A DNA stretch of 43,350 bases from a virus (lineage: Duplodnaviria > Heunggongvirae > Uroviricota > Caudoviricetes): the IMG/VR virus record IMGVR_UViG_2703718812_000010; one strand, 5' to 3'. The notes beneath the pieces were generated by a model, which was not told where the DNA came from, did no database searches, and saw only the letters and a list, made by a program, of their open reading frames with translations. The translations under genes and the position numbers were made by a program. Below, one piece after another: positions 1 through 21,724 of this stretch (the stretch's first letter is position 1; every line of letters begins with the position of its first letter).

Positions 1-142
1 AACAAACCTGAATCATGCCGCAATGAGCACGCTTCTTGGTGAGAGGATTATGGACCGCATGACCATGAACGGTGGTCGGTGGGTGACGTTTAACTGGGAT
101 AGCTGGCGTCCAAATGTCAGCAATCAGAGGGTTGTAAAGTAA
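1..142 (+). CDS. 3' end of an unidentified gene (partial, runs off window start)
   Basis: Open frame from window start to TAA at 140-142, read directly from sequence; no recognisable motif. Confidence 0.25.
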   Translation, partial: TNLNHAAMSTLLGERIMDRMTMNGGRWVTFNWDSWRPNVSNQRVVK

Positions 143-145
143 TTT

Positions 146-880
146 TTGTTGGAGGACGTTTTAATGGAAACTGTATTTGACGCACTGAAAGCACTGAAAA
201 AAGCCTCTTCACAGGTAGTGGCATCGCGCCTTGGAATCAGCCGCGAAGATGCTGTCAACGAACTGTGGAAACTGAAGCGCCGTGGTGAAGCGGATAACAA
301 GGGTTCGATGTGGTGGCTGATTCAGGCTGGTGAAAGTGAACCAGTGTCACCGGTACCGAAAGTGACAGCGCAAATGCTGACTGAGGCGATTGAACATCAT
401 GGCCCACAAACGGCGGATGAGCTGGCACTGATGTTCGGGATTACCTCCCGCCGGGCGAATTCATCACTGGCCATGGCAATCAGCAAAGGGCGTCTGATTC
501 GCGTGAATCAGGGCGGTAAATTTCGGTACTGCATACCGGGCGCTGATTTACCGGCAGAGCCGAAAGCCGCATCCATAGCGGAAACGGATGGTAAAGCCTT
601 TCCTCAGCCAGCAGGTGTTGCGTTACCAGTCGGGGAAGCGGAAACACAGGAAGAAATAAAAACGGAAAGTGTGGCGGTCACAGTGCAGTCACAGCCGTCG
701 TTCACCAGAAAGCATCCGGATGGTCTGATTTTACCATCGCTGCATGTGGCTAACCGCGAGCTGCGCCGGGCAAAAGGTCAGGTTCAGAAGTGGGAGCGAG
801 TCTGCGCCGCGCTGCGGGAGCTGAACAAGTGCCGGGATATTCTCCGGGATATTACCGCCACCAGAGAACAGCAGCGGTGA
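146..880 (+). CDS. hypothetical prophage protein, 244 aa
   Basis: Long ORF in ORF track; no motif recognised; start may be an internal Met. Context: cluster of small prophage-type genes. Confidence 0.45.
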
Positions 881-912
881 GTGGGTGGAAGACGTGGTGC
901 CGGGCGGAAATC

Positions 913-1194
913 ATGATACTCCGGCAGTGTGCGGGAACGAGGAAGGTAAAAAGCGTTGGCGCACTTATCGGACGAACTGAAGCGGCAGTGAGAACGAAGG
1001 CACGGGAGCTGGGCATCAGCATGATGTTACGTGGTGATTTTCACCCGTCGGCAAAATATTCTCAGCGTGATATTGAGCTGGCGCGGCAACTGCATCAGAG
1101 AGGCATGCAAAGAAGGGAAATTGCCAGAAAATTAGGCATGCCGCTGCGCATAGTGAATAACTACGTTTATTTCGACAGGAGGGTGTCTGCGTGA
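913..1194 (+). CDS. hypothetical HTH-repeat protein (start moved to internal ATG of ORF 790..1194)
   Basis: ORF 790..1194 overlaps the previous gene; internal ATG at 913 gives a 93 aa product with repeated motifs of the form (I/V)A/G..LG.S and RREIARKLGM resembling helix-turn-helix units. Confidence 0.35.
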   Translation: MILRQCAGTRKVKSVGALIGRTEAAVRTKARELGISMMLRGDFHPSAKYSQRDIELARQLHQRGMQRREIARKLGMPLRIVNNYVYFDRRVSA

Positions 1195-1418
1195 AAATCC
1201 TGTATCAGGATTACGGCCCGGTGGGGCAGGTGGTTATCAGCAGTACTGTAATGGAGTTTCGGAAGCATAACCGTGTGGTGGATGCTGTGCTGTTAACCTG
1301 TCCGGGGATATCGGCGAGTCGTGCAGGTGTGTTTATTATGAAGACTAAATTATATGGCAGTAAGGCGTGGATAAAGAAGGCGTATCGTGTAGCGTTGCAG
1401 GAGGTTAACAGTGAGTAA
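1191..1418 (+). CDS. hypothetical protein, 75 aa
   Basis: ORF overlapping stop of the upstream gene by 4 nt (translational coupling pattern). Confidence 0.35.
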   Translation: MKILYQDYGPVGQVVISSTVMEFRKHNRVVDAVLLTCPGISASRAGVFIMKTKLYGSKAWIKKAYRVALQEVNSE

Positions 1419-1722
1419 AATTAAAGAAATGCCGGTAGTTCGTGACGGATATGGCTACTGGACACATCCTGAATATGAAAAATTCTGTGATGGTCGGGAA
1501 TATATTTCAACGGAAGAGTTTAACGCCTGGATGGAGGAAAATAATCTTCAATACGTCCTCTGCTTCAGAGATGAAGGATGTGCTGACCTTGATGCGTGTG
1601 ATGCTGATATTTCTGCATGGGAACCGGAACGACCAGAGGGCGATGGCTGGTTTATTGGTTCCATTCATGATACGGAAGATGGCCCGGTTTGTGTCTGGTT
1701 GCGAAATAAGGCTGAAGCATAA
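1411..1722 (+). CDS. hypothetical prophage protein, 103 aa
   Basis: ORF in operon-like arrangement with flanking small genes; acidic, Cys-containing; no confident family assignment. Confidence 0.4.
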   Translation: MSKIKEMPVVRDGYGYWTHPEYEKFCDGREYISTEEFNAWMEENNLQYVLCFRDEGCADLDACDADISAWEPERPEGDGWFIGSIHDTEDGPVCVWLRNKAEA

Positions 1723-1849
1723 AGGCGATAAACCAACTAACAACTAAATACTGAAGATTTAAATCAGAAACGATTTTTATTAAATCCTTAACCGGAGGGA
1801 TTCCTGCACCCTCAGAACATCAGGAGGCCGCCCGAAAGGGCGGTAAGAA

Positions 1850-2068
1850 ATGAAACATTATTTAGAAAAAAATTACCCACGAAAGAGCAGAACAACAGAG
1901 TTTCTGTTTTTCATTCTGTTTATAGTGTTGATGATACCGATATCCCCGCTATTACTGGTCTGGATAATTGGAAGGACATTTGAACCAGTTATTGAGCTAT
2001 ATACCGATGTGACATGGGAATCATTCAGCGCACTGCACAATAAAATTAATCCGTATAAGGAAAACTGA
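1850..2068 (+). CDS. small membrane protein, 72 aa
   Basis: Hydrophobic stretch FLFFILFIVLMIPISPLLLVWIIG predicted as a TM helix; preceded by AGGAGG and a GNRA-loop hairpin. Confidence 0.4.
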   Translation: MKHYLEKNYPRKSRTTEFLFFILFIVLMIPISPLLLVWIIGRTFEPVIELYTDVTWESFSALHNKINPYKEN

Positions 2069-2069
2069 T

Positions 2070-2627
2070 ATGAGCACTATTACCAGAGAACGCGCGGAGA
2101 TTAAATCATACATCACAGGCTTCCTGAGCGACTCGGCGCACGATAACAAGTCTTCAGACAGCCTGCTGGCTAATGTGTTTCGTATCGCGCTGGCATCACT
2201 GGAAGCAGAGCCGATAGCAATGGTAGTGCCTGATGAAATGGATTTGCTTACCTGCCATCTCGACGGTGTAACTAAAACATATGCTGATGGCTGGAACGCC
2301 TGCCGCGTCGCCATGCTTCAGGCCGGAAACTTTCGGGAAAATAAGAATTCGTCAACCAACAATTTTCGGGAAATCTCGGAAACGTCAACCAGATCTCCGA
2401 TAACTCTGGATGGCTGGATAAGCTGTACTGAGCGAATGCCTGAAAAGAGCCAGAACGTGCTTATTTCGATGAATATCGATAGCGAGGCTGGGCCATTAAT
2501 ATATTCCGCACGCTATCTCGGAGGCACGTTCCGGCGCGGAGGTATAGCAGTTAGTCCGGGTAATGATCTTAGGCAAGCAACCCACTGGATGTCGCTACCA
2601 GAACCGCCGCAGGAGGTGAATCAATGA
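2070..2627 (+). CDS. hypothetical prophage protein, 185 aa (C-terminal WISCTERMPE region reminiscent of DUF551-type prophage proteins)
   Basis: ORF starts 1 nt after the previous stop; family resemblance is from memory only and was not searched. Confidence 0.45.
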   Translation: MSTITRERAEIKSYITGFLSDSAHDNKSSDSLLANVFRIALASLEAEPIAMVVPDEMDLLTCHLDGVTKTYADGWNACRVAMLQAGNFRENKNSSTNNFREISETSTRSPITLDGWISCTERMPEKSQNVLISMNIDSEAGPLIYSARYLGGTFRRGGIAVSPGNDLRQATHWMSLPEPPQEVNQ

Positions 2628-2917
2628 CCTGGCCTGAAGCATTCACAACGGTAGGAATTGCGATGGCGGTGGCGCTGGTGGTGTATTCGATTTGCCGCTG
2701 GGGATAAAAACGGTTTGCGGGAAAAGGATAGTTAAGTAGAATTGCAGCGGGTGCTTGAGGCTATCTGCCTCGGGCATGAACACCAACGGCAGATAGAGAA
2801 AAGCCCCAGTTAACATTACGCGTCCTGCAAGACGCTTAACATTAATCTGAGGCTCAATCCATGCTGAACACATGTAGGTTAGCCTCTTACGTGCCGAAAG
2901 GCAAGGAGAAGCAGGCT

Positions 2918-3073
2918 ATGAAGCAGCAAAAGGCGATGTTAATCGCCCTGATCGTCATCTGTTTAACCGTCATAGTGACGGCACTGGTAACGAGGAAAGA
3001 CCTCTGCGAGGTGCGAATCCGAACCGGTCAGACGGAGGTCGCTGTCTTCGTAGACTACGAATCTGAGAAGTAA
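2918..3073 (+). CDS. hokD: Hok/Gef family type I toxin (HokD/RelF-like), 51 aa
   Basis: Translation MKQQKAMLIALIVICLTVIVTALVTRKDLCEVRIRTGQTEVAVFVDYESEK has the Hok architecture: one TM helix followed by the conserved RK.LCE.R....EVA.F..YE periplasmic tail. AGGAGA sits 8 nt upstream of the ATG at 2918. The ORF-track start at 2861 is an in-frame upstream extension. Confidence 0.75.
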   Translation: MKQQKAMLIALIVICLTVIVTALVTRKDLCEVRIRTGQTEVAVFVDYESEK

Positions 3074-3080
3074 GAGACCA

Positions 3081-3103
3081 GGCGGGGGAGTAATCTCCCG
3101 CCA
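3081..3103 (+). other. 3' stem-loop of the hok transcript (GGCGGGGGA / TCTCCCGCC)
   Basis: Imperfect 8-9 bp inverted repeat immediately after the hok stop; no T-tract follows, so more likely an mRNA-stabilising end structure than an intrinsic terminator. Confidence 0.35.
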
Positions 3104-3192
3104 CCTCTGATGTGTCAGGCATCCTCAACGCACCCGCGCTTTACCATACTGAAAATGCTGTTTGAATGTTCATCTCTGAAAGAGGACTATGA

Positions 3193-3537
3193 ATGAAAAA
3201 GGTATTGATTGCAGCACTTATTTCCGGTGTGTCTTTTGGCGCTTTTGCACAGCAGGGTGGTTTCCAGGGGCCAGAAGCAGAGCGTTCAACAGTAGCGCAG
3301 GCAAAAGAACTGAAGGATGATGCATGGGTTATCCTTGAAGGGAGCATCGTTAAAAAAGTGGGTGATGAACGTTATGAGTTTCGTGACAATAGCGGGACAA
3401 TTGTCACGGATATTGATGACAGCGTATGGGCCGGGCAGAATGTTTCTCCGAAAGACAAAGTAAGAATTGAGGGTGAAATTGATAAAGACCTGAGCAGTGT
3501 TGAAGTTGATGTAAAGGCACTGAAATTATTAAAGTAA
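3193..3537 (+). CDS. YgiW/YdeI-family periplasmic OB-fold (BOF) protein, 114 aa
   Basis: N-terminal signal peptide MKKVLIAALISGVSFGAFA; remaining sequence resembles the BOF stress-protein family. Confidence 0.65.
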   Translation: MKKVLIAALISGVSFGAFAQQGGFQGPEAERSTVAQAKELKDDAWVILEGSIVKKVGDERYEFRDNSGTIVTDIDDSVWAGQNVSPKDKVRIEGEIDKDLSSVEVDVKALKLLK

Positions 3538-3546
3538 CCGCCCCTG

Positions 3547-3573
3547 CTTGTTAAGCCCGTCTTACTGACGGGT
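3547..3573 (+). terminator. intrinsic terminator after the YgiW-like gene
   Basis: Stem CCCGTC (3547-3552) / GACGGG (3558-3563) followed by TTTTCTGTTT. Confidence 0.55.
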
Positions 3574-3658
3574 TTTCTGTTTGTACATTCCGGCGTATTG
3601 CCTTACAATTCGCGCAGTCAGCCTGAACAACTGACACCTGCTGTCACCGGAGAATCCG

Positions 3659-3862
3659 ATGACACAACACATAAAATCCCACAATTCTGAAGCCGACCCG
3701 GAAATTAAGCAGGGGAGGCGTTTTCGTGCGCCTCAGTATGGCTGGTTTCACTATCTGTTCTGTACGATCGATGAGGCAGATATGTGTAACCAGGTGAATC
3801 ATTTGATACCGACAAGGGTTTTAGTGAAAGGAGGTGAAATCACCTGTAAGATGCTGAAATAA
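3659..3862 (+). CDS. hypothetical protein, 67 aa; ends 10 bp before the prophage left terminus
   Basis: ORF only; could be an intact small gene or the remnant of a gene disrupted by the insertion. Confidence 0.3.
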   Translation: MTQHIKSHNSEADPEIKQGRRFRAPQYGWFHYLFCTIDEADMCNQVNHLIPTRVLVKGGEITCKMLK

Positions 3863-7347: not shown

Positions 7348-8280
7348 ATGACTGATATTAACGATGTAATCAAGACCATTGATGAACTTATTGATGGCGG
7401 CGTACTGACGCAGTATGCCATCGCCAGAGAGGCGGGAATTTCCGACGGCACATTATCGGCTTTCCGTAAGGGAAAATATAAAGGCGATAACGCTGCTGTG
7501 GCTGCTTCCCTGCGTTCCTGGTATGAGAACTGGAATAAACAAAGCGCACTGCCGGAACCGCCGCAGTTTGTGGAAACGCAGACAGTCCAGGAGCTGCGCG
7601 CACTGTTTCAGGCGGTTCGTCTGATGGGCTGTATTAACGTTATTGTGGGCGTACCGGGTGTGGGTAAAACGGCCACTGCCCGTAATTACTGCCAGGAGCA
7701 ACCAAACACCTGGATGATCACCCTGTCACCCGCGCACTCCAGCGTCACGGAGTGTCTGCTGGAGCTGGCCGATGCGCTGGGGATTGATTACACCCGCGCG
7801 AACAAAGGGGCATTATCCCGCGCCATCCGCCGTCGCCTGATGGGAACGCGTGGACTGGTTATTGTGGATGAGGCGGATCATCTTGGTATTGACGGTCTGG
7901 AGCAACTCCGGGCAATTCAGGACGCCACGGGGATCGGGATGGTGCTTATTGGTAACCCGCGCGGATTGTTTAAAGGTGGACGCCGCACCTTTGATGATTT
8001 ATCGCGCCTGTTCAGCCGTCTTGCCCGTACAAAACAACTTCGCAAGGCCAAAAAGGCGGATGTGCTGGCCATTGCCAGGGCGTGGGGGATCAGTGGTGAG
8101 GCCGAGCTGGCCGTCATGCAGGCTATCGCTGAAAAGCCGGGAGCGTTACGCGTTCTGACACATACGCTTAACCAGGCGTGGCTCACCGCCAGCGGTGAAG
8201 GCGCGGCGCTGACAGAAAAACATATTAATGCGGCCTTTAAAGAGGTTTATACCAACCCTGAATTACTCTCACAGGTGTGA
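7348..8280 (+). CDS. MuB-like AAA+ ATPase, transposition target-DNA activator
   Basis: Walker A GVPGVGKT and Walker B LVIVDEADHL; 310 aa; immediately downstream of the transposase. Confidence 0.9.
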   Translation: MTDINDVIKTIDELIDGGVLTQYAIAREAGISDGTLSAFRKGKYKGDNAAVAASLRSWYENWNKQSALPEPPQFVETQTVQELRALFQAVRLMGCINVIVGVPGVGKTATARNYCQEQPNTWMITLSPAHSSVTECLLELADALGIDYTRANKGALSRAIRRRLMGTRGLVIVDEADHLGIDGLEQLRAIQDATGIGMVLIGNPRGLFKGGRRTFDDLSRLFSRLARTKQLRKAKKADVLAIARAWGISGEAELAVMQAIAEKPGALRVLTHTLNQAWLTASGEGAALTEKHINAAFKEVYTNPELLSQV

Positions 8281-8504
8281 TTATGGCGGTATTTAATATT
8301 CCTGATATTTACGGACGCTTTTACCTGGTTAATTTCGATAACGTGAAGGTGATTTCACTGGCCGAAAATAAAGAATGTGGCGATTTACTTTTTGAATTTA
8401 ATGACCGCACACGAATGGTGATATCTGCCGGACTTGATCGAGAAGGTGCGACAGACGTTTACAGCGGAATATGCCGTTCTGTTGGTGCGAAACAAGTCAG
8501 CTAA
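8277..8504 (+). CDS. hypothetical early protein, 75 aa
   Basis: Start overlaps the B stop; first gene of the accessory early operon. Confidence 0.45.
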   Translation: MIMAVFNIPDIYGRFYLVNFDNVKVISLAENKECGDLLFEFNDRTRMVISAGLDREGATDVYSGICRSVGAKQVS

Positions 8505-8771
8505 ATGAGGTGTTATATGAATATGCAATCCTGCGGTAACAAAATGAATTTATTCGACTCCCTGAACAGCGCGCGCCGTCTGACCGAACTTGCCGGTGCG
8601 GTACTGGAACGCAGTAAGCGCTATCCGCAACGTTTTGCACTGAAAACCACGCCGCCGGTAGGCAACGTGCAGGGAACCGGTGAAATTGAAATCACCATAC
8701 AGACCAACGGCCTGCGCCGCCGTGTGAAGGCCACCCGCATCAGCGGCTGCACGGTTTACTGGGAGGTGTGA
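8505..8771 (+). CDS. hypothetical early protein, 88 aa or shorter
   Basis: Tightly packed ORF; several possible in-frame starts. Confidence 0.4.
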   Translation: MRCYMNMQSCGNKMNLFDSLNSARRLTELAGAVLERSKRYPQRFALKTTPPVGNVQGTGEIEITIQTNGLRRRVKATRISGCTVYWEV

Positions 8772-8772
8772 G

Positions 8773-9054
8773 GTGAAAAAAAATCTCATTGCATGGGCGT
8801 GGTCGAGTGGTCTTATTGAGTTTGGTTACGTCCTGCCGGAAGGTGCATTGCCGATAGTTGCCGGAAAGCCTGCCACGGTACGGCATGTGATTGAGGTTAT
8901 GGCGCGTCATGGACGTGATGAACAGGAGCAGTTACTGGTTCCGGGGATACCGGAAGCGGTGACGGAGGAAGAAGCCTTTAATGCCATGATTCGGTTCTGC
9001 CGTGAGGTCAGACGCCGGGTCAGTTATCCAAACAGAACGAGGACCAGAGGATGA
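8773..9054 (+). CDS. hypothetical early protein, 93 aa
   Basis: ORF 2 nt after the previous stop. Confidence 0.45.
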   Translation: MKKNLIAWAWSSGLIEFGYVLPEGALPIVAGKPATVRHVIEVMARHGRDEQEQLLVPGIPEAVTEEEAFNAMIRFCREVRRRVSYPNRTRTRG

Positions 9055-9323
9055 GTAAAGTCGTACGCATTATTTTCGAATACAAGGAGCACGTTATCCA
9101 TAAAAACGCTGATGGAACAGTGCGCATGGGGGTAAGTCTGGACATACGTTCAACCGGGATAAAGCAGAAGGGTGATGGACCCGCCATGATTTTTGGGGTG
9201 GTTATGCTCGCGGAAAGCAGAGACTTTGCTGAACTTGTGGCAATGAAAGCCAGTGCGCTCATGAAAGATATGAGCATGCGTTCCGGGGTTATTAAAGGTA
9301 ATGAATTTAATCAGCAGGGGTAA
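9051..9323 (+). CDS. hypothetical early protein, 90 aa (paralog A)
   Basis: Begins MSKVVRIIFEYKEH; the next gene begins MSKVRVIFEFKH, indicating a tandem duplication. Confidence 0.5.
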   Translation: MSKVVRIIFEYKEHVIHKNADGTVRMGVSLDIRSTGIKQKGDGPAMIFGVVMLAESRDFAELVAMKASALMKDMSMRSGVIKGNEFNQQG

Positions 9324-9327
9324 TTCC

Positions 9328-9621
9328 ATGAGCAAAGTACGCGTTATTTTTGAATTTAAGCATGTTTCGCATGACGAAAAACCGGCAGGCAATGACTGTG
9401 TTGAAGTGCATGAAAAGATTGGTGTGGATGTAAAAACAGAACGTGATACGAATAACAGGCCGACGTCACTCTGTGACGTTTATGCAAGTATTCTCCAGTA
9501 TCACAGTCCTGAAATTATTCAGTTTCTCTCAGCGGAATTTCAGGCATCTGTACAGGCTTTTGGGGCGGATGCCATCATTAAACGCCACCGCGTGCATAAA
9601 GCATCAGGCACACTGCAATAA
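9328..9621 (+). CDS. hypothetical early protein, 97 aa (paralog B)
   Basis: Internal ATG of ORF 9301..9621 with a GGGG-rich ribosome-binding region upstream; N-terminus parallels the previous gene. Confidence 0.5.
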   Translation: MSKVRVIFEFKHVSHDEKPAGNDCVEVHEKIGVDVKTERDTNNRPTSLCDVYASILQYHSPEIIQFLSAEFQASVQAFGADAIIKRHRVHKASGTLQ

Positions 9622-9632
9622 GGAAAAACAAA

Positions 9633-11858: not shown

Positions 11859-12410
11859 ATGATGATTTTACAACCCATGGGGCGAAAAGGTCAGGCACCT
11901 GCTCATGTCCGTGCGTGGACACCTGAAGAAGATGCGCTGCTGATTGCGCTTTATCCATCCACCCCGGTTAAGGATATTGCTGTCAGGGTAAAAAGAAGTT
12001 TCTGGGGTGTACATAACCGGATTGTTTTATTACGCGGTACTTACCCGGAGTTGCTCAAATGCAAACGTCCAAGATTTAAACATGATGAAGATAAATTTAT
12101 CCGAAAAAATGCCAGAACGATGACCGGTAAGCAAATAGGAGAATATCTGGGGCGAGACCGGGATTCTGTCCACAATCGGGCGCGATATATTGGCGTAAGC
12201 ATGAAAAAATACGGAGAATTGCTGCCCTTCACCCGTATACCTGACGATGATGTTCATCTTATTCGTGAATTACGGGATGCTGAATCACCACGACGTCTTA
12301 CCTTCCGGGAAATAGGCGAGAAATTTGAATTATCCGAGAGTACGGTGAATTTTATTTATCACCATCGCCGGACTGCCGAGGACGCTGTATTACGGGAGTT
12401 AACGCCATGA
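11859..12410 (+). CDS. putative DNA-binding protein with three tandem HTH-like repeats, 183 aa
   Basis: Three roughly 40 aa repeats (..VKDIAVRVKRSFWGVHNRI.. / ..TGKQIGEYLGRDRDSVHNRARYIG.. / ..LTFREIGEKFELSESTVNFIYHHRR..). Confidence 0.45.
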   Translation: MMILQPMGRKGQAPAHVRAWTPEEDALLIALYPSTPVKDIAVRVKRSFWGVHNRIVLLRGTYPELLKCKRPRFKHDEDKFIRKNARTMTGKQIGEYLGRDRDSVHNRARYIGVSMKKYGELLPFTRIPDDDVHLIRELRDAESPRRLTFREIGEKFELSESTVNFIYHHRRTAEDAVLRELTP

Positions 12411-12592
12411 TAAAGAGACTTGTATTTTTCGCAATTTTCGTTCCGGTGTTGGGGGTTGGTTTTATATTTGCGATTACAGGAAACCTGTCCATGATGCCAG
12501 ATATTTGGTTCTTTATCAGGATGTCGCTCTTCCTGTTTATTATGAATCTTCTTATCGACATATATATCCGTATTACTGGAAAACATAAATGA
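12407..12592 (+). CDS. small membrane protein, 61 aa
   Basis: Two hydrophobic segments; overlaps neighbours by 4 nt. Confidence 0.4.
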   Translation: MIKRLVFFAIFVPVLGVGFIFAITGNLSMMPDIWFFIRMSLFLFIMNLLIDIYIRITGKHK

Positions 12593-12963
12593 GAAAAATC
12601 ACGTCCTTGTCAGAGTTACAGGAGATGAATATGAGTATTGAATTAAGATCGTCTTATGAGTATCGCAAATTTCTTATCGCCGGAGGCATGAAACCGGAAG
12701 ATGTGGAAAAAATCGTTTCTTTTATGGATAAGGAATGTGATAAGCGGGATGTGTCAGAAATTATTATGGATGACATGATTCTGGATTCAGTCGTGGCGTT
12801 AAGTCCGTTATGGATTGTGCATTCTCTTGCGGAAATTGCCAAAGGCACCGATAAACAGGCAGCTGTTGCTGCCCTTCAGACGCTTAATGAAATGCGTATA
12901 TCTCCACGCCCGACATTAATACAGATGATTTTGTCCAGTATGGAGGATAAAGCAAATGAATAG
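12589..12963 (+). CDS. hypothetical early protein, 124 aa
   Basis: ORF only. Confidence 0.4.
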   Translation: MRKITSLSELQEMNMSIELRSSYEYRKFLIAGGMKPEDVEKIVSFMDKECDKRDVSEIIMDDMILDSVVALSPLWIVHSLAEIAKGTDKQAAVAALQTLNEMRISPRPTLIQMILSSMEDKANE

Positions 12964-13153
12964 TCTACCCGCTGGATGGGCGCGCCCTCTGATGGCTAAG
13001 AAGCATCATTTTTTTAAAACTGGCGATAATATCAGTATATGTAGGCGGTGGTTATATCTGGCTCATAATCGCGAGCCGGATACATTTGAAAGCCCTGATG
13101 ACTGTGCCGAATGTCGCAGAAGACTGAATAAGGAGAAAGATAATGGACAGTAG
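12956..13153 (+). CDS. hypothetical small protein, 65 aa
   Basis: ORF only; Cys-x-x-Cys pair (CAECRRR). Confidence 0.35.
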   Translation: MNSLPAGWARPLMAKKHHFFKTGDNISICRRWLYLAHNREPDTFESPDDCAECRRRLNKEKDNGQ

Positions 13154-13439
13154 TTCGCAGTTGTTCTGGTGTTTATATATCACATCGTTTTTCGGTGCAT
13201 TCGTCATTACACGATGGCTGTGCCGGAAAGTTATCAGTATTTTTCATAAAAAATACCTGATTGGGCTGGCGGCGACTTCTCTGATTAATGCACTTGCCAG
13301 ATATCATAAGGGGGAATACTACTCAAGAATAAAAACTGATGATGGTTTTAATATTTTTGTGATTCCTCCGGAGTATCGGGTTCAGCTCGATCGGGAAAGT
13401 AATATCTATCATATCAGCAGGAGTGTTGATACAGCATGA
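13143..13439 (+). CDS. small membrane protein, 98 aa
   Basis: N-terminal TM helix LFWCLYITSFFGAFVITRWL. Confidence 0.4.
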   Translation: MDSSSQLFWCLYITSFFGAFVITRWLCRKVISIFHKKYLIGLAATSLINALARYHKGEYYSRIKTDDGFNIFVIPPEYRVQLDRESNIYHISRSVDTA

Positions 13440-13945
13440 GAGGGAAACTGATATCCGCTATTCATGTGGCAAAGCACGAGCTTGCCCTAGATGATGAGAC
13501 CTACACATTCGTACTACTGGCAGCCACCGGCAAAACCAGCTGCCGGGATATGTCACCCGGTGAGTTATCCCGCGTGCTGGATGTTTTCAAAAAACGCGGT
13601 TTTAAAGTGCGTCAGAAACCGGTTAACCGGGCCTTAAAACCGGGTACGGTGACCGCCAAAATTCGCGCCATCTGGAAAGTGATGCACCGGCAGGGCTTTA
13701 TCTCTGATGGTGCGGAAACCGCTCTTAACCGCTGGGTGAAATCGCAGACGGCCGCGCAGAACGGCGGCGAAGGTGTGGCAAACTGGCAGTGGCTGGAGCA
13801 ACACCCCGCCCTGGCCTCAGATGTGCTGGAGCGTCTCAAGCGATGGCACCGCCGCAAAATGCTGGCCGCGATGGGAATGCCCGAACGCACGCTGATGGGG
13901 TATGACGCCGTTTGCAGGCAGTATGAAAAATCACTTCCCCGTTAA
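13436..13945 (+). CDS. Mu gp16/GemA-like protein (DUF1018 family)
   Basis: N-terminus MRGKLISAIHVAKHELALDDETYTFVLLAATGKTSCRDMSPGEL typical of gp16 proteins of Mu-like phages; last gene before the early-operon terminator. Confidence 0.65.
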   Translation: MRGKLISAIHVAKHELALDDETYTFVLLAATGKTSCRDMSPGELSRVLDVFKKRGFKVRQKPVNRALKPGTVTAKIRAIWKVMHRQGFISDGAETALNRWVKSQTAAQNGGEGVANWQWLEQHPALASDVLERLKRWHRRKMLAAMGMPERTLMGYDAVCRQYEKSLPR

Positions 13946-13949
13946 CCCC

Positions 13950-13980
13950 AAATCCCGCCACAACGCGGGATTTTTATTTT
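13950..13980 (+). terminator. intrinsic terminator at the end of the early operon
   Basis: Stem AAATCCCGC (13950-13958) / GCGGGATTT (13965-13973) followed by TTATTTT. Confidence 0.6.
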
Positions 13981-14014
13981 AAACTTACCGGGAACGCGAG
14001 AACCGGAGGCTGAT

Positions 14015-14440
14015 ATGGCAGAAACTCAGATGAGCATGTTTGGTGGTGACAGTGAGCAACTGCACGCCCTTATCGACCGCCTTGATGACATCCCTGATGA
14101 TGTTCTCAAAAAGAACTGGCCGCGGACCCTGTCAGAACTGGTTGAAGTCACCGGCGCAGAACTTCAGCGTCAGGGGATTGAGCCGGTACTGGCCGGTAAA
14201 CTGGCACGCAAGGTGGCTGCGGCTCAGGCAGCCTATATGGGCGGACGGGGTTATTACCTGCCGGTCGGGGAATCTCTCTTTGCCGAGCTGCGAAACAATG
14301 AGATATTTTCGCGCTGGGACCGGGGCGAGAAAATTGAATCCCTTCGCCGCCATTACCGGATGTCAGAAACCCAGATTTATACCGTCATACGCGAACAGCG
14401 CCGTCTGCATCTGGTAAGAACGCAACCGCCACTTTTCTGA
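14015..14440 (+). CDS. Mor/C-family transcriptional activator (middle/late gene activator)
   Basis: 141 aa; Mor/C-like sequence with C-terminal HTH region; lies between the early terminator and the lysis genes. Only one Mor/C-family gene was recognised in the window. Confidence 0.7.
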   Translation: MAETQMSMFGGDSEQLHALIDRLDDIPDDVLKKNWPRTLSELVEVTGAELQRQGIEPVLAGKLARKVAAAQAAYMGGRGYYLPVGESLFAELRNNEIFSRWDRGEKIESLRRHYRMSETQIYTVIREQRRLHLVRTQPPLF

Positions 14441-14511
14441 TATTCCGCAAAGCCTGCCGCCTCTCCTTCACCGTTACGCTGACTCAGAGAACATCATGAG
14501 ACAGCGTAACA

Positions 14512-15012
14512 ATGCCAAAACTCCCCGCACCACTGCGTAAAAAGCTGATTGCCCTTGTTCTGGCCGGTGCCGGGACGTTCACGATTGCCACGCATTACAC
14601 CGGTTACTGGGAAGGGAAAGAAAACTCCACGTATATCGATCCCACCGGTACACCCACCATCTGTTACGGCCATACCGGCCCGGATGTGAAACCGGGTATG
14701 ACCCTGACAGATGAAGAATGCCTGGAACTACTGGAAAAGGACATGAAATGGGCCTTTGCGGCCATTGATCGGCGTGTTCAGGTGCCGCTTACCCGTGGTC
14801 AGACGGTGGCGCTGGCTTCGTGGATCTTCTGGGCCGGTGAAACGAACTTTCGCAACTCCACGCTTCTGCGCCTGATCAATGCCGGGCAGATGCCCGCGTC
14901 CTGTAAGCAGTATATCCGCTGGATTTATTCAAAGGGGGTGAAACTCCCCGGCCTTGAGGCCCGCCGTTCGGCGGATGAATGGTTATGTCGCTACGACTTG
15001 CCGAAAGTCTGA
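14512..15012 (+). CDS. SAR endolysin (T4-type lysozyme fold, GH24-like)
   Basis: N-terminal signal-anchor-release-like hydrophobic segment LIALVLAGAGTFTIATHY followed by the catalytic E-x8-D-x5-T pattern (YWEGKENSTYIDPTGTPTICYGHTG). Confidence 0.8.
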   Translation: MPKLPAPLRKKLIALVLAGAGTFTIATHYTGYWEGKENSTYIDPTGTPTICYGHTGPDVKPGMTLTDEECLELLEKDMKWAFAAIDRRVQVPLTRGQTVALASWIFWAGETNFRNSTLLRLINAGQMPASCKQYIRWIYSKGVKLPGLEARRSADEWLCRYDLPKV

Positions 15013-15085
15013 ACCGCTTCTGGCGACCGCTCATGATAGCGCTGCTGTGTGCGGTACTGCTGTTACGGGGTGTCCTGTGGCTGCG

Positions 15086-15475
15086 GTGAATAATGCCTTA
15101 CCGGCCCTGATTGCCGGGGCGTGCATGGCGGCGCTGGGGATTATCGCTGTACTGGTTGCCGCTATATGGGGAATGCACCAGAAGACGCAGCGCCTTGAAG
15201 ACAATAATCAGGTGCTTGTGCGTGAGCGGGATGAGGCGCGTCAGGTGCTGGCAAATCAGCAGCACACCCTGCAACTCATTTCACAAATCAGTGAGGCGGC
15301 CACGAATGAAAAACAACAGAACATTCAGCACAGCGAGGGGCAGCAGAGCGTTGTCCGCCGGTCGCTGGCGGCAGTGCCTGCGGCCTCTGCCCCTGTTCCT
15401 GATGATGTGGCTGATCGGGTGCGCCGGGCCGTCTGTGAAATACGTGCCTGTGAAGCCGGTGCCGATCCCCGCTGA
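15086..15475 (+). CDS. i-spanin (Rz-like); start uncertain (ORF track gives 14954)
   Basis: N-terminal TM helix ALPALIAGACMAALGIIAVLVAAIW followed by a coiled-coil-like Q/E/R-rich periplasmic region; possible GTG start at 15086. Confidence 0.55.
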   Translation: MNNALPALIAGACMAALGIIAVLVAAIWGMHQKTQRLEDNNQVLVRERDEARQVLANQQHTLQLISQISEAATNEKQQNIQHSEGQQSVVRRSLAAVPAASAPVPDDVADRVRRAVCEIRACEAGADPR

Positions 15476-15677
15476 ATGGCTGGCTGACTGCCTGGTCCCT
15501 CCTGCGCCGGAGCCGTTCACGTTTGGGGCATCGGTCACTTACAACCTGCAACTGCTGGCGGTGATCAAGAACTGCAACGTGGACAAGGCCAGTATTCGTC
15601 GTCTGGAGGCGCGGCGACAACATGAATTTACTGATATGGCCGGAACGCCTGCTGTTCCGGCAGGAAAGACGAAGTAA
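15306..15677 (+). CDS. o-spanin (Rz1-like lipoprotein), overlapping the i-spanin in another frame
   Basis: Lipobox LIGC followed by a proline-rich region (PVKPVPIPAEW...PPAPEP); start codon uncertain. Confidence 0.5.
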   Translation: MKNNRTFSTARGSRALSAGRWRQCLRPLPLFLMMWLIGCAGPSVKYVPVKPVPIPAEWLADCLVPPAPEPFTFGASVTYNLQLLAVIKNCNVDKASIRRLEARRQHEFTDMAGTPAVPAGKTK

Positions 15678-15687
15678 GGAAAAAGGT

Positions 15688-15915
15688 ATGGATGATTCAG
15701 ATCGTGCTCAGGCTGTGATGGAGCGGGGATCAGAACGCGCCCTTTGTAACCGGCTGACACGTAAGCGCCGGGCAATGGATGCTCCGGGCAGACGTGTCTG
15801 CGCGGACTGTGGCGGAGAGATCCCCGCCGCACGTCTTGTTGCTGTGCCGGATGCCATCCGTTGTGTGAACTGCCAGAACATCATGGAGGCCCGTCATGTG
15901 GGTCAGCATCGTTAA
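15688..15915 (+). CDS. DksA/TraR-family C4 zinc-finger protein
   Basis: CADCGGEI...CVNCQ four-cysteine motif near the C-terminus in a roughly 75 aa protein; ATG at 15688 inside ORF 15622..15915. Confidence 0.6.
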   Translation: MDDSDRAQAVMERGSERALCNRLTRKRRAMDAPGRRVCADCGGEIPAARLVAVPDAIRCVNCQNIMEARHVGQHR

Positions 15916-16204
15916 AGATTATGTTGTGCCGATCCTTTCGGCGACGGCAACCGCTGGCGGGATATTCATGGCGCTGATGCGCAAAACGTTTGTCCCCCGC
16001 GAGGCCTTTGAAAAACTCTCCGACCGCGTTGAGAAGGTGGAAACCCGCCTGTCGTCACTGCCGACAGAAGCCGAGGTCAACCGTCTGAATGTGGAAATCG
16101 TGACCCTGCGGGGTGAACTGAAAACCACGAACGCCACGCTCCGCTCTGTCTCCTATCAGAACGAACTGCTGCTGGAGCAGGCGGTAAGGAAAAAAACACA
16201 ATGA
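15896..16204 (+). CDS. membrane-anchored coiled-coil protein, 102 aa (candidate lysis accessory / releasin-like)
   Basis: N-terminal TM helix VPILSATATAGGIFMALM then a coiled-coil-like region; sits downstream of the lysis cassette. Confidence 0.4.
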   Translation: MWVSIVKDYVVPILSATATAGGIFMALMRKTFVPREAFEKLSDRVEKVETRLSSLPTEAEVNRLNVEIVTLRGELKTTNATLRSVSYQNELLLEQAVRKKTQ

Positions 16205-16491
16205 GTGATTTCATTACTGAAGATCAGCGTCTTGTCATTCTGCGGTCGCTGGCGGATTACAACGGCGAACTGGGTGAATCCGTGCTCCAGGACTGTCTGG
16301 ATGATTACGGTCACCGCGTGTCCCGCGACACCGTTCATACTCATATTGCCTGGCTTGCCGAGCAGGGGCTGGTGCGTAAGCGCACGCTCGTTAATGGTTA
16401 TTTCATCGCTGAACTGACCGGCCGGGGTCAGGATGTGGCGGAAGGCCGCGCCACCGTTCCGGGTGTGAAGAAACCACGCGCAAGGGGGTAA
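16201..16491 (+). CDS. hypothetical late protein, 96 aa (Mu gp26 position)
   Basis: ORF only; start overlaps the previous stop. Confidence 0.45.
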   Translation: MSDFITEDQRLVILRSLADYNGELGESVLQDCLDDYGHRVSRDTVHTHIAWLAEQGLVRKRTLVNGYFIAELTGRGQDVAEGRATVPGVKKPRARG

Positions 16492-16493
16492 CG

Positions 16494-17075
16494 ATGGATA
16501 AGCCAACGCGTGGCCGTGTACGCAAGGTGGACTTGCTCCCCGACAGCATCCGTAAGCCACTGCTGGAAATGCTGCGTGAAAAACGTCTGACGCAGGTCCA
16601 GATACGCGAGGAAATCAACCGTCTGATCCGTGAGGCGGGCCTGCCGGAAGAGCAGCAGCTTTCACCGGCGGCCATCAGCCGGGAAGCCTCCCGTAATGAG
16701 CTGATTGCCCGTAACCTGCGTGATTTACGCGAGCAGACAAAAGCCATGATGGCCGAACTGGGGGACAAGCCAACCGGTGAAACCACTGCATTGATCCTGG
16801 AGATGTCCCGCGCCCTGATGTACCGCCGTCTGCGTGCCGCGACCGAATCCCTGAACAGTGACAGCGACGTGGATATGCGTCTTATTAAGGACATCCTCCT
16901 GTCAGCACAGCGTGCGGAAAGTGCCGCCGAGCGCAGCATTAAGCGTGAAAAAGAAATCAGGGCTGCATTTGCTGAAGAGATGGCAAACGCCGTCACCGAC
17001 GAGCTGCGCGGCGTGGACGGGATGAGTGAACAGCTTGAGTCCCGTATTAAGGGGATTCTGTTGGGTAAAGTCTGA
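16494..17075 (+). CDS. putative terminase small subunit (Mu gp27 position)
   Basis: 193 aa basic/acidic helical protein immediately upstream of the large terminase; assigned by position. Confidence 0.5.
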   Translation: MDKPTRGRVRKVDLLPDSIRKPLLEMLREKRLTQVQIREEINRLIREAGLPEEQQLSPAAISREASRNELIARNLRDLREQTKAMMAELGDKPTGETTALILEMSRALMYRRLRAATESLNSDSDVDMRLIKDILLSAQRAESAAERSIKREKEIRAAFAEEMANAVTDELRGVDGMSEQLESRIKGILLGKV

Positions 17076-18739
17076 TGAATAACGCCGAAGAACTCTCCCC
17101 CTTACTGACGAATACCGTCTCCACCCGCAAAATTGATCTGGCCGGTGAAAAAGCCCTGCTGGGCGTGGATGTGCCGGACAGCCTTGATTTGCCCGGTGAT
17201 ATGCCGGTATTTCTGGATTATCAGGCCCGCTGGTTTGAGGATGAAAGCGAGGTCTGCATCGCGGAAAAATCCCGCCGCACCGGGCTTACCTGGGCGGAAG
17301 CCGGGCGTAACGTCATTACCGCTGCAAAACCGAAGCGGCGCGGTGGCCGCAATGTGTTTTATGTGGGGTCAAAGCAGGAGATGGCGCTGGAATATATTTC
17401 TGCCTGTGCACTGTTCTCCCGTGCCTTTAACCAGCTGGCAGATGCTGATGTGTATGAGCAGACCTTCTGGGATCGGGATAAAAAAGAAGAAATTCTGACC
17501 TACATGATCCGCTTTCCGAACAGTGGATTCAAAATTCAGGCACTGTCTTCCCGTCCGTCAAACCTGCGCGGCCTTCAGGGGGATGTGGTGATTGATGAAG
17601 CCGCGTTCCACGAGTCACTGGATGAGCTTCTCAAGGCGGCAATGGCGCTCACCATGTGGGGCGCGCGCGTGCGTATTATCTCCACGCATAACGGCGTCGA
17701 TAATCTGTTTAATCAGTACATTCAGGAAGCCCGCGAGGGGCGCAAGGATTACAGCGTCCACCGCATTACCCTGGATGATGCCATTGCGGACGGGCTGTAC
17801 CGTCGTATCTGTTATGTCACCGGCCGCGAATGGTCACCGGAAAGCGAGCAGAAGTGGCGTGATGATCTCTACAAAAACGCCCCGACCCGTGAGGATGCCG
17901 ACGAGGAATACGGCTGTATCCCGAAAAAATCCGGCGGTGCCTATATTCCTCACGCGCTTATTGAAATGGCGATGCTCCGCGACATCCCGATTCTGACGTT
18001 TGAAGCCCCGGACGACTTCATCAGCCGTGCCGCATGGCTGCGTGAATCGGAGGTTTTAACCTGGTGTGAAGAACATTTAAAACCGCTTTTAGAGGCGTTA
18101 AATCCCCGTTCCCGCTTCAGCTTCGGGGAAGACTTTGCCCGCACCGGTGACCTCTCCTGCTTTGTGCTGCTGGAAATCACCGAATCCCTGGCAAAACGCG
18201 AGGTGTTTCGCGTGGAGCTGCGCAACCTGCCGTATGCCCAGCAGGAGCAGGTGATGATGTACATCCTGACCCGCGTTCCGGCGCTGGTCGGTGCGGCGTT
18301 CGACGCCACCGGTAACGGCGGCTATCTGGCCGAAGCCGCGCTGCTGGCCTTTGGCCCGGACATCATCGACTGCGTGATGTTATCGCCGAAGTGGTACGGC
18401 GAGTGGATGCCAAAACTGAAGGCCGAGTTTGAGGATCAGAATATCCTCGTCGCCCGCCATCAGACCACGCTTGATGATTTGCGCCATGTGAAGGTGGTGA
18501 ACGGTATCCCGCAAATTGACAAGGGGCGTACGAAGGACCAGAACGCAACGGCTGTGAACGCCCGCCGCCATGGCGATTTTGCCGTGGCGCTCTGTATGGC
18601 AAACCGGGCGTCATACATGGAGGGCTTCATCCTGGATGAATCAGCCTGTCAGGCGCTGCCGGAGCGGTCGCGGGCCATGGAGGGCGGTTATCGTGATGAC
18701 GATGAGGCATATCATGAATTTGATCGGGGGTGCTGGTAG
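17075..18739 (+). CDS. terminase large subunit
   Basis: 554 aa; ATPase-like N-terminal region (VIDEAAFHE Walker B-like) and nuclease-like C-terminal region; lies upstream of the portal. Confidence 0.8.
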   Translation: MNNAEELSPLLTNTVSTRKIDLAGEKALLGVDVPDSLDLPGDMPVFLDYQARWFEDESEVCIAEKSRRTGLTWAEAGRNVITAAKPKRRGGRNVFYVGSKQEMALEYISACALFSRAFNQLADADVYEQTFWDRDKKEEILTYMIRFPNSGFKIQALSSRPSNLRGLQGDVVIDEAAFHESLDELLKAAMALTMWGARVRIISTHNGVDNLFNQYIQEAREGRKDYSVHRITLDDAIADGLYRRICYVTGREWSPESEQKWRDDLYKNAPTREDADEEYGCIPKKSGGAYIPHALIEMAMLRDIPILTFEAPDDFISRAAWLRESEVLTWCEEHLKPLLEALNPRSRFSFGEDFARTGDLSCFVLLEITESLAKREVFRVELRNLPYAQQEQVMMYILTRVPALVGAAFDATGNGGYLAEAALLAFGPDIIDCVMLSPKWYGEWMPKLKAEFEDQNILVARHQTTLDDLRHVKVVNGIPQIDKGRTKDQNATAVNARRHGDFAVALCMANRASYMEGFILDESACQALPERSRAMEGGYRDDDEAYHEFDRGCW

Positions 18740-21643: not shown

Positions 21644-21645
21644 CG

Positions 21646-21724
21646 GTCAGTGGCGGGGGTCGAACCCGCATACATGATCCACCCGGAGGCAGGCACCGAC
21701 TTTACCAGTTAAGCGTACACTGAC
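21646..21724 (-). other. tRNA-like structured element (probable tRNA remnant)
   Basis: On the minus strand: 7 bp acceptor-like stem (GTCAGTG / CACTGAC), D-arm-like hairpin with GG loop, T-arm GCGGG-TTCGACC-CCCGC abutting the 3' acceptor strand, total 79 nt; no anticodon stem could be formed and there is no CCA. Confidence 0.25.

Follow-up and report, generated by a model that had tools for sequence, protein, structure and literature searches.

How is host lysis triggered by a prophage whose lysis genes comprise an endolysin with a signal-anchor-release (SAR)-like N-terminus and a pair of overlapping spanins, but no recognisable holin? The question was raised by a preliminary description of a 43,350-nucleotide viral DNA (IMG/VR record IMGVR_UViG_2703718812_000010), the whole of which is referred to here as the window, and the lysis trigger was then regarded as open. 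That view is outdated by homology to phage Mu, for which such a system has already been described: Mu lyses its host without a holin and requires gp25, a “releasin”, to free its SAR endolysin gp22 (Chamblee et al. 2022, PMC9239132). The block at 14015-16491 matches the Mu genes C-lys(22)-23-23.1-24-25-26 gene for gene (Table 1), the collinearity extending through C-22-23-23.1-24-25-26-27-28-29, and each lysis protein is homologous to its Mu counterpart with 27-42% identity in pairwise comparison. The prophage further encodes a Mu-type transposase and homologues of B, Gam, GemA, Mor, the portal protein, and Mom. The homology, the gene order, and the sequence features are all seen in the window itself, where no holin could be recognised, and with them the block is probably a lysis cassette of the Mu type, working independently of a holin, in an E. 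coli prophage that is Mu-like (transposable); the independence from a holin is carried over from the Mu experiments.

Table 1. Features of the lysis cassette and its flanks (positions in the window).
Feature	Position	Strand	Basis
Mor/C-family late transcription activator	14015..14440	+	PF08765, E=1e-31; collinear with Mu gene 21
Spacer, presumed activator-dependent late promoter (Mu Plys equivalent)	14441..14511	+	function inferred only
SAR-type GH24 endolysin, Mu gp22 homologue	14512..15012	+	PF00959, E=6e-37
Unannotated 36-codon ORF, predicted single-TMD peptide	14979..15089	+	conservation and purifying selection
i-spanin, Mu gp23 homologue	15077..15475 (start approximate)	+	PHROG 214 Rz-like spanin, E=2e-32
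o-spanin lipoprotein, Mu gp23.1 homologue	15306..15677	+	PF23793 LysC, E=5e-16; PHROG 3001, E=8e-42
TraR/DksA C4 zinc-finger protein, Mu gp24 position	15688..15915	+	PF01258, E=8e-12; PHROG 54, E=9e-20; PGAP call
DUF2730 protein, 102 aa, Mu gp25 releasin homologue	15896..16204	+	PF10805, E=7e-20
gp26-like winged-helix protein	16201..16491	+	PHROG 436; weak wHTH Pfam hits; Mu gp26 position

The endolysin retains the GH24 catalytic motif (E-x8-D-x5-T) as E34-x8-D43-x5-T49 and is 39% identical to Mu gp22 (E=9e-35). Its best solved relative is R21 of phage 21 (PDB 3HDE, E=1e-24), which aligns from residue 5 onwards, the match taking in the N-terminal SAR region. The N-terminus consists of MPKLPAPLRKK followed by LIALVLAGAGTFTIATHY, and residues 12-29 (mean KD 1.5, 50% Ala/Gly/Ser/Thr) are less hydrophobic than a normal transmembrane domain (TMD), the top 19-residue window reaching 1.39 against a TMD threshold of 1.6. 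This weakly hydrophobic stretch is preceded by four basic residues, K3, R9, K10, and K11, of which the R-K-[KR] cluster is invariant among relatives from Escherichia, Salmonella, Citrobacter, and Serratia. One or two basic residues are usual at the N-terminus of SAR endolysins, and in Mu it is such residues that confer dependence on gp25 (PMC9239132). The SAR-like character noticed in the preliminary description is thus borne out, and tethering to the membrane without cleavage is predicted rather than a cleavable signal peptide.

The same segment is nonetheless arranged in the manner of a signal peptide: its n-region is basic, its h-region (LIALVLAGA) is short, and small-residue sites of possible cleavage can be read from the sequence after AGA (before G) and after IAT (before H). 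Were an ordinary Sec signal peptide to be cleaved here, the endolysin would be active on export, late transcription alone would set the timing of lysis, and the DUF2730 protein would serve some other late function tied to the gp26, gp27, and terminase genes, in keeping with the retention of the zinc finger-DUF2730-gp26-gp27 module in Mu-like phages whose endolysins lack a secretion signal (also PMC9239132). This is judged highly improbable, given that the N-terminal segment aligns, with gaps of at most 2 residues, with the experimentally proven SAR domains of both Mu gp22 and R21, that the catalytic Glu would be left just 6 residues from the cleaved N-terminus, and that the DUF2730 homologue of Mu is needed specifically for endolysin release (PMC9239132).

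A membrane-anchored, helical protein of 102 residues had also been pointed out as a candidate release or timing factor, and this suggestion gains support by analogy, the protein being a homologue of Mu gp25 at the same position in the cassette. Its match to the DUF2730 profile is full length (71.4 bits, the cut-off being 24.9, with residues 6-97 covering model positions 3-101 of 102); it falls into PHROG 736 (E=9e-32) and is 34% identical to Mu gp25 over 93 residues (BLASTP, E=5e-18), the matching Mu gene being labelled “releasin” in AF083977 (tblastn). Type I releasins are set apart from types II and III by significant similarity to Mu gp25, and both the full-length profile match, including the N-terminal TMD, and the direct similarity to gp25 were found here. 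The gene is the fourth or fifth after that of the endolysin, within the five genes used as the limit for Mu-like phages. The TMD lies at about residues 9-28, and its hydrophobic stretch at 10-28 (KD 1.8) runs into R29-K30, so placing a twin-basic M-R-K motif where the TMD meets the cytoplasm, as in gp25, and a single N-terminal TMD with N-out/C-in topology is predicted by the positive-inside rule. The AF2 helices span residues 3-30, 35-53, and 58-101, that is, the TMD and then two long helices. The cytoplasmic domain carries a net charge of +3, its Mu counterpart being anionic, and in this lineage a Tyr (Y87) replaces a His that is kept in Mu gp25, all other relatives, and distant DUF2730 proteins. 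That the endolysin depends on this protein is probable by extension of the Mu experiments. DUF2730 proteins occur next to non-SAR endolysins too (also PMC9239132), and the family may therefore have a broader or different role.

Upstream of the endolysin gene there is just the Mor/C gene and the 71-nt spacer, in which no ORF is present, so that the absence of a holin at this point, as originally described, stands. Nor did a standard holin come to light elsewhere: no match to the holin families of Pfam or PHROGs was obtained among the membrane ORFs tested, which yielded no small membrane protein of a recognised holin family in the late cassette, and PGAP, in its annotation of an identical prophage as far as window position 37100, names no holin. 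The late operon does contain one predicted, conserved membrane peptide, encoded by the 36-codon ORF between the endolysin and i-spanin genes. The sole other membrane ORFs with plausible gene status, of 61 and 98 residues, lie in the early region; they are sporadic accessory genes, which many relatives lack despite having identical lysis genes, and were dropped as holin candidates because of this distribution and the lack of family matches. The 61-aa protein (12407-12592) could be taken for a class II (pinholin-like) holin located outside the cassette, being small, with two strong TMDs (KD 2.8 and 1.9), a short basic C-terminus, and a PGAP gene call. Such a role is scarcely credible, however, for a gene in a low-GC early region upstream of gemA and outside the late operon, whose product matches only PHROG 19804 (unknown function), whose sole homologue in phages comes from one copy of this type of prophage, and which most relatives lack, loci whose endolysin and releasin are 100% identical among them.

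The activator gene, which stands where Mu has C, is the single Mor-family gene found adjoining the cassette; a hairpin resembling an intrinsic terminator (13950-13973) lies between it and gemA. No sigma-70 consensus promoter was found in 13900-16600, and in Mu the C-dependent promoter Plys is situated at the position equivalent to the spacer (AF083977). At the other end, the cassette is bounded downstream by the gp26-like gene, after which comes that of the small terminase subunit, gp27. The TraR-like zinc finger reported earlier is likewise present, 15688 being the best start and 15915 the end of its gene, and is not known to act in lysis; in Mu, gp22 and gp25 are enough for lysis and gp24 is not needed (PMC9239132).

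The spanin genes overlap in different frames, as had been claimed, the o-spanin gene extending beyond the i-spanin stop, so that the pair constitutes a two-component spanin of “overlapped” architecture. In the Mu study, 10 mM Mg2+ was supplied where lysis was meant to depend on spanins (PMC9239132). The i-spanin is 27% identical to Mu gp23 (E=4e-7) and has an N-terminal TMD (KD 2.64). Its start at 15077 is a GTG homologous to an ATG in relatives, PGAP placing the start at 15047. Longer versions, from an ATG at 14975 or from the PGAP GTG at 15047, were rejected because relatives begin at the homologous ATG and because dN/dS in the i-spanin frame is 3-6 upstream of 15077, which indicates that this part is non-coding in that frame. 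The o-spanin, 42% identical to Mu gp23.1, carries the lipobox L-I-G-C with Cys39; its ATG start is kept in relatives, a TTG at 15351 is an alternative, and the PGAP start at 15435 leaves out the lipobox.

The small ORF overlaps the last part of the endolysin gene as well as the first part of the i-spanin gene and is the sole open lead in an otherwise known cassette. Its likely start is the third codon, an ATG at 14985, giving the predicted peptide MVMSLRLAESLNRFWRPLMIALLCAVLLLRGVLWLR. It is seldom called in annotations, and then as “Uncharacterised protein”. A tblastn match free of indels was obtained at every one of the 38 related loci spanning the junction, and the ORF is 36 codons long in each of the 20 distinct sequences. 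The 60 nt without overlap with any other gene give dN/dS values of 0.20-0.42 for its own frame, about 1 for frame 1, and 3-6 for frame 2, and this stretch diverges far less than the synonymous sites of the endolysin (binomial P 1e-6 to 1e-11, inter-clade pairs). A conserved RNA fold as the source of this conservation was rejected, the consensus amounting to -7 kcal/mol with essentially no covariation. The peptide has a hydrophobic stretch (KD 2.3) with an invariant Arg inside.

The ORF is missing from Mu, matches neither holin nor any other family in Pfam and PHROGs, and has no homologues beyond its own clade among 1.84 billion representatives; none of 10 variants was found by exact look-up, and profile searches returned only the clade itself and one spurious repetitive protein, which was discarded. 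Descent by duplication of another TMD was rejected for the i-spanin (z=0.2), the releasin (z=-0.5), and the SAR segment (z=0.5), and a comparison with the TMD of Mu gp23 (z=2.4) was not considered meaningful.

Could this peptide of 34-36 residues be the trigger itself? As a cryptic minimal holin-like or pinholin-like protein, it would time lysis by depolarising the membrane or by interacting with the SAR segment, with the DUF2730 protein relegated to an auxiliary part; in a weaker form of the proposal it would act as an antiholin-like brake or as a spanin regulator. The indel-free conservation, the purifying selection, a divergence far under neutral expectation, the hydrophobic stretch, and the position within the late lysis operon all speak for a function of this sort, and there is a precedent for an extra small membrane protein in SAR-endolysin lysis. 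This is Lcc6 of the Shewanella prophage LambdaSo (bioRxiv 10.1101/2024.01.23.576932), likewise a small single-TMD protein, which is required for lysis beyond the standard components. Lcc6 differs in being 65 aa long, encoded far from the lysis genes, and working with a pinholin, and no similarity to it surfaced, in that the searches with the small ORF found its own clade only and Lcc6 was not itself compared. A triggering role is nevertheless decidedly unlikely. With a single TMD the peptide is shorter than the pinholin S21 68, its invariant Arg lies within the hydrophobic stretch, family matches and homologues beyond the clade are lacking, its expression is putative and its SD-like sequence (GGCGG or TGCGG) weak, and Mu lyses its host without any such gene. 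Conservation of the R-G-V-L-W-L part may, moreover, reflect the ribosome-binding site of the i-spanin gene. That the lineage, meaning the enterobacterial Mu-like prophages of Escherichia, Shigella, Salmonella, Citrobacter, and Serratia, controls release of its SAR endolysin by two small membrane proteins, namely the releasin and this peptide as a trigger or brake that Mu lacks, is also judged unlikely.

On the Mu-type reading, the Mor/C-family activator would switch on a late promoter 5' of the endolysin gene, and the GH24 endolysin would be exported via Sec and held inactive in the inner membrane by its weakly hydrophobic SAR segment, locked on the cytoplasmic side by basic residues, the cluster R9-K10-K11 together with K3. 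The 102-aa DUF2730 protein, N-out/C-in with its helical cytoplasmic domain, would then act as the releasin and allow the SAR segment to exit the bilayer, upon which the released endolysin would refold and degrade the peptidoglycan. Disruption of the outer membrane by the overlapped i-/o-spanin pair would come last.

[quoted passage not shown] Several differences should be given due weight against it. The identities to the Mu proteins are modest; the basic residues of the endolysin lie at positions 3, 9, 10, and 11, compared with 6, 7, and 9 in Mu, and do not coincide with Mu K6 and K7; the SAR stretch contains 2 Gly, that of Mu a Gly-rich run; the releasin differs in its charge and in the His to Tyr change; and the conserved small-ORF peptide could take part in triggering. 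The present locus also departs from Mu in having a clear TraR/DksA zinc finger at the gp24 position, a single Mor/C gene by the cassette, and the extra 36-codon ORF, where gene 23 of Mu directly overlaps the end of gene 22, and in lacking the middle operon, which in Mu consists of genes 18-20 and encodes among others two membrane proteins, gp19 and gp20. Phage 21, whose lysis system also includes Rz/Rz1, resembles the locus in its GH24 endolysin with an alignable SAR N-terminus; it differs by the two-TMD pinholin gene (S21 68) just upstream of R21, where none precedes the endolysin here, and by the two N-terminal basic residues of R21, the DUF2730 gene lying downstream in the prophage.

Matches to window 12300-17100 are present in 232 of 5426 complete E. 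coli genomes (~4%), and the hit table lists O157:H7 and other strains named STEC among them; some copies of the cassette are contained in Stx-converting phages. Scanning with the releasin alignment yielded 1 locus only from genome contigs (Citrobacter braakii) and 34 loci from IMG/VR.

Since the gp25 mechanism of Mu was published in 2022, the preliminary description had in effect re-derived a known mechanism from the sequence alone. The holin-less releasin design is thus already in the literature, and the cassette is a correct but ordinary example of it, bar one tiny unannotated membrane-peptide gene. Its value lies firstly in indicating that lysis without a holin and in dependence on a releasin, the strategy known from Mu, is probably conserved in a separate lineage of prophages. 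The differences from Mu, comprising the shifted basic cluster, the non-Gly-rich SAR, the non-acidic cytoplasmic domain of the releasin, and the His to Tyr exchange, furthermore offer natural variants for the competing models of releasin action (protease, charge neutralisation, channel), and the small membrane-peptide ORF could reveal an additional layer of lysis control.

Across 14015-17075, every gene has its collinear counterpart in phage Mu, namely C, 22 (lys), 23, 23.1, 24, 25, 26 and 27. Mu was reported to lyse its host without a holin; none of its membrane proteins was lethal on depolarisation, and DNP delayed rather than triggered lysis (Chamblee et al. 2022, PMC9239132). In the same work, gp22 was characterised as a SAR (signal-anchor-release) endolysin, gp23/gp23.1 as the spanins and gp25 as the "releasin" needed for the release of gp22, a dependence traced to two basic side chains, K6 and K7; the release of unrelated SAR endolysins was also helped by gp25. 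The whole of gp25 defines DUF2730, the genes of which are located at most five genes 3' of the endolysin in Mu-like phages (PMC9239132). Homology supports the assignment of the present cassette as a moderately divergent member of this Mu-type holin-less, releasin-dependent lysis system. The mechanism has already been published for Mu (PMC9239132) and matches the cassette, so the preliminary description, every element of which was recovered here, had inferred a known mechanism from the raw sequence; its reading is right but not new.

Features of the lysis cassette, of other regions of the prophage and of distant loci
Feature	Coordinates	Strand	Evidence or remarks
61-aa two-TMD gene	12407-12592	+	PHROG 19804; low-GC early region
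98-aa weakly hydrophobic gene	13143-13439	+	PHROG 17269; low-GC early region
Terminator-like hairpin	13950-13973		directly behind gemA, ahead of the Mor/C gene
Mor/C-family activator	14015-14440	+	leads straight into the lysis genes
GH24 endolysin	14512-15012	+	PF00959, E=6e-37; motif E34-x8-D43-x5-T49; Mu gp22, 39% identity, E=9e-35
Small ORF (36 codons)	14979-15089	+	overlaps endolysin end and i-spanin start; product MVMSLRLAESLNRFWRPLMIALLCAVLLLRGVLWLR
i-spanin	about 15077-15475	+	N-terminal TMD; PHROG 214; Mu gp23, 27% identity, E=4e-7
o-spanin	15306-15677	+	lipobox L-I-G-C; PF23793, PHROG 3001; Mu gp23.1, 42% identity, E=2e-14
TraR/DksA zinc finger	best start 15688	+	good Shine-Dalgarno upstream; same start as PGAP
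102-aa DUF2730 protein (releasin homologue)	15896-16204	+	PF10805 over whole model, 71.4 bits (cut-off 24.9); Mu gp25, 34% identity, E=5e-18
"tRNA-OTHER" (PGAP)	21645-21724	-	between F-like and G-like genes
Gin-type invertase	37751-38311
685-aa protein	38402-40459	+	SASA (sialate O-acetylesterase-like) domain and DUF6645
Mom	41748-42485
Zinc finger adjoining DUF2730, then gp26 and gp27 homologues	L043 2774-3291; L044 2720-3240; L042 2778-3291		loci of distant Mu-like phages

The endolysin begins with 11 residues bearing four basic side chains (K3, R9, K10 and K11), followed by an 18-residue stretch, half of it Ala, Gly, Ser or Thr, with a best 19-residue hydropathy window of 1.39, below that of an ordinary TMD. 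Its closest solved structure is R21, the SAR endolysin of phage 21 (3HDE, E=1e-24), with the SAR segment lying within the alignment, and the pattern P-x-L-R-K-[KR]-L-[IV] plus an Ala/Gly-rich stretch is kept among the 18 distinct sequences compared, all of which bears out the SAR-like N-terminus first described. The basic residues occupy positions -3, -2 and -1 from the hydrophobic stretch, plus K3, whereas Mu has K6, K7 and K9; the stretch itself contains two Gly, in contrast to the Gly-rich run of Mu, suspected by the authors to be the cause of releasin dependence (PMC9239132).

The endolysin is preceded by nothing but the activator gene and a 71-nt spacer, as expected from the earlier remark that no canonical holin precedes it. 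A standard holin elsewhere was sought as a refutation by testing all ORFs of at least 25 aa on both strands for hydrophobic segments. Alternative-frame ORFs within larger genes aside, five membrane-protein candidates emerged in the prophage, namely the i-spanin, the releasin homologue, the small ORF, the 61-aa gene and the 98-aa gene, none of which matched a holin family in Pfam or PHROGs; nor is a holin present in the PGAP annotation of an identical prophage, covering the part up to 37100. The 61-aa and 98-aa genes were considered as holins and rejected on account of their early-region location, the lack of holin family hits and their sporadic distribution among otherwise near-identical prophages, being missing in many relatives with 100% identical endolysin and releasin. 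Among phages, homologues of the 61-aa gene are confined to its own prophage type. Both are accessory "moron"-like genes and not part of the core lysis set.

The 102-aa protein, which had been proposed as a membrane-anchored coiled-coil release factor, displays every sequence-level hallmark of a releasin. A TMD at about residues 9-28 is followed by R29-K30, the twin-basic motif at the TMD/cytoplasm junction, and by two long helices; the AF2 model (mean pLDDT 73.5) places helices at 3-30, 35-53 and 58-101, and solved structures gave weak coiled-coil matches and no others. Together with the holin search, the homology to gp25 and the full-length DUF2730 match argue for the proposed release role. 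The cytoplasmic domain of the protein has a net charge of +3, whereas Mu gp25 has a net charge of -1 and two His. Codon 87 (16154-16156) encodes Tyr, whereas Mu gp25 and all other relatives have His at this position, within the motif S-H-Q-x-E-L-L-L-E (as E-H or K-H in distant phages). Tyr is carried by 13 near-identical loci, that is, the present one and 12 relatives from one E. coli lineage, and His by 28.

The o-spanin start lies within the i-spanin gene, in a different frame, and the o-spanin gene continues past the i-spanin stop, confirming the overlapped architecture, and the TraR-like zinc finger was likewise recovered downstream. In RefSeq/PGAP (NZ_CP038328.1), the i-spanin is named "endopeptidase" with its start at 15047 (15047-15475), and the o-spanin (LysC) starts at 15435 (15435-15677), past the lipobox Cys, so that the annotated protein lacks the signal peptide and lipidation site.

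No second Mor/C-family gene turned up in a scan that covered most early-region proteins outside the short ORFs at 8280-9630, and nothing in the prophage corresponds to the Mu middle operon (genes 18-20, including the membrane proteins gp19 and gp20), so that the early/middle/late cascade may follow another organisation than in Mu.

A complete Mu-like (transposable) prophage occupies roughly 3785-42612, encoding a CI-type repressor, a Ner-like protein, Mu transposase A and B homologues, Gam, GemA, the Mor/C-family activator, a Mu-type terminase, portal and head genes, a contractile tail, a Gin-type invertase and Mom. The same 5 bp, ATATG, border it on either side (3780-3784 and 42613-42617), as Mu-type transposition would predict, and the motif TTTGATACCGA occurs at both ends in inverted orientation. 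The host site is a lambdoid prophage with DUF1627 and DUF551 genes (flanks 1-3784 and 42618-43350), lambdoid gene matches reaching 3784 on the left, which fits the GenBank Stx-converting phages carrying an "inserted Mu-like phage" that is 98% identical to the region studied here. Of 5426 complete E. coli genomes, 232 have matches to the stretch 12300-17100, and the stretch is 100% identical to that of E. coli O157:H7 strain NE 1092-2. The 685-aa SASA protein, encoded between the invertase and Mom, may have a cargo or host-range function without a counterpart in the examined parts of Mu. ARAGORN found no tRNA in the whole window, including at the PGAP "tRNA-OTHER" call in the identical prophage.

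The comparison took in loci from Serratia, Salmonella, Citrobacter, one metagenome and 34 IMG/VR contigs; identity to the proteins of the present cassette is 72-100% for the releasin and 55-100% for the endolysin. The order GemA, Mor, endolysin, spanins, zinc finger, DUF2730, gp26, gp27 is the same in the four relatives whose gene calls were read. The module from zinc finger to gp27 is kept in the more distant Mu-like phages Shewanella MuM16-2, Vibrio ZX4290 and Klebsiella Kp4866-3, whose endolysins have no secretion signal, in agreement with the published pairing of DUF2730 with diverse endolysins (PMC9239132); multi-TMD ORFs lie nearby, at least in Kp4866-3. Retention of the module beside signal-less endolysins suggests that the zinc finger and DUF2730 are functionally linked and that the role of DUF2730 is wider than SAR release.

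No free spacer separates the endolysin stop (15012) from the i-spanin start (15077), the junction being filled by the small ORF. Mu lacks this ORF, its gene 23 reaching into the 3' end of gene 22. The product has a single TMD (hydrophobic stretch, KD 2.3). Indel-free matches to the ORF exist in all 38 related loci covering the junction, and it is 36 codons long in 20/20 distinct sequences. The 60 nt free of other genes show 13-17 differences in inter-clade pairs, which against a synonymous divergence of 0.58-0.65 in the neighbouring endolysin gives a binomial P of 1e-6 to 1e-11 for such conservation. The dN/dS values, from non-independent pairs and few sites, are 0.20-0.42 when the ORF is read in its own frame, close to 1 in frame 1 and 3-6 in that of the i-spanin, a pattern that, at the level of sequence comparison, is that of coding sequence. 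The third codon, ATG 14985, lies 9 nt after a weak SD-like GGCGG and is kept in 19 of the 20 distinct sequences (GTG in the other) through TTA/CTA choices of the overlapping Leu codon. A conserved RNA fold was considered as the cause and rejected, as it does not explain the conservation. Annotated copies of the peptide are very rare, amounting to five clusters that are unnamed or labelled "Uncharacterised protein", and no homologues outside its own clade were found among 1.84 billion representatives. The small ORF is probably a real gene; that its product is the lysis trigger seems distinctly improbable. By analogy, it might act in a holin-like or antiholin-like manner or modulate the SAR or the spanins, Lcc6 of LambdaSo being an earlier example of an additional small membrane factor (bioRxiv 10.1101/2024.01.23.576932).

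The remaining value of the cassette lies in this small conserved membrane-peptide ORF and in the natural variants bearing on the releasin mechanism. Should the prophage lyse normally, Tyr at the conserved His would be an argument against a His-dependent protease model; should it not, the Tyr allele of the releasin may be impaired.
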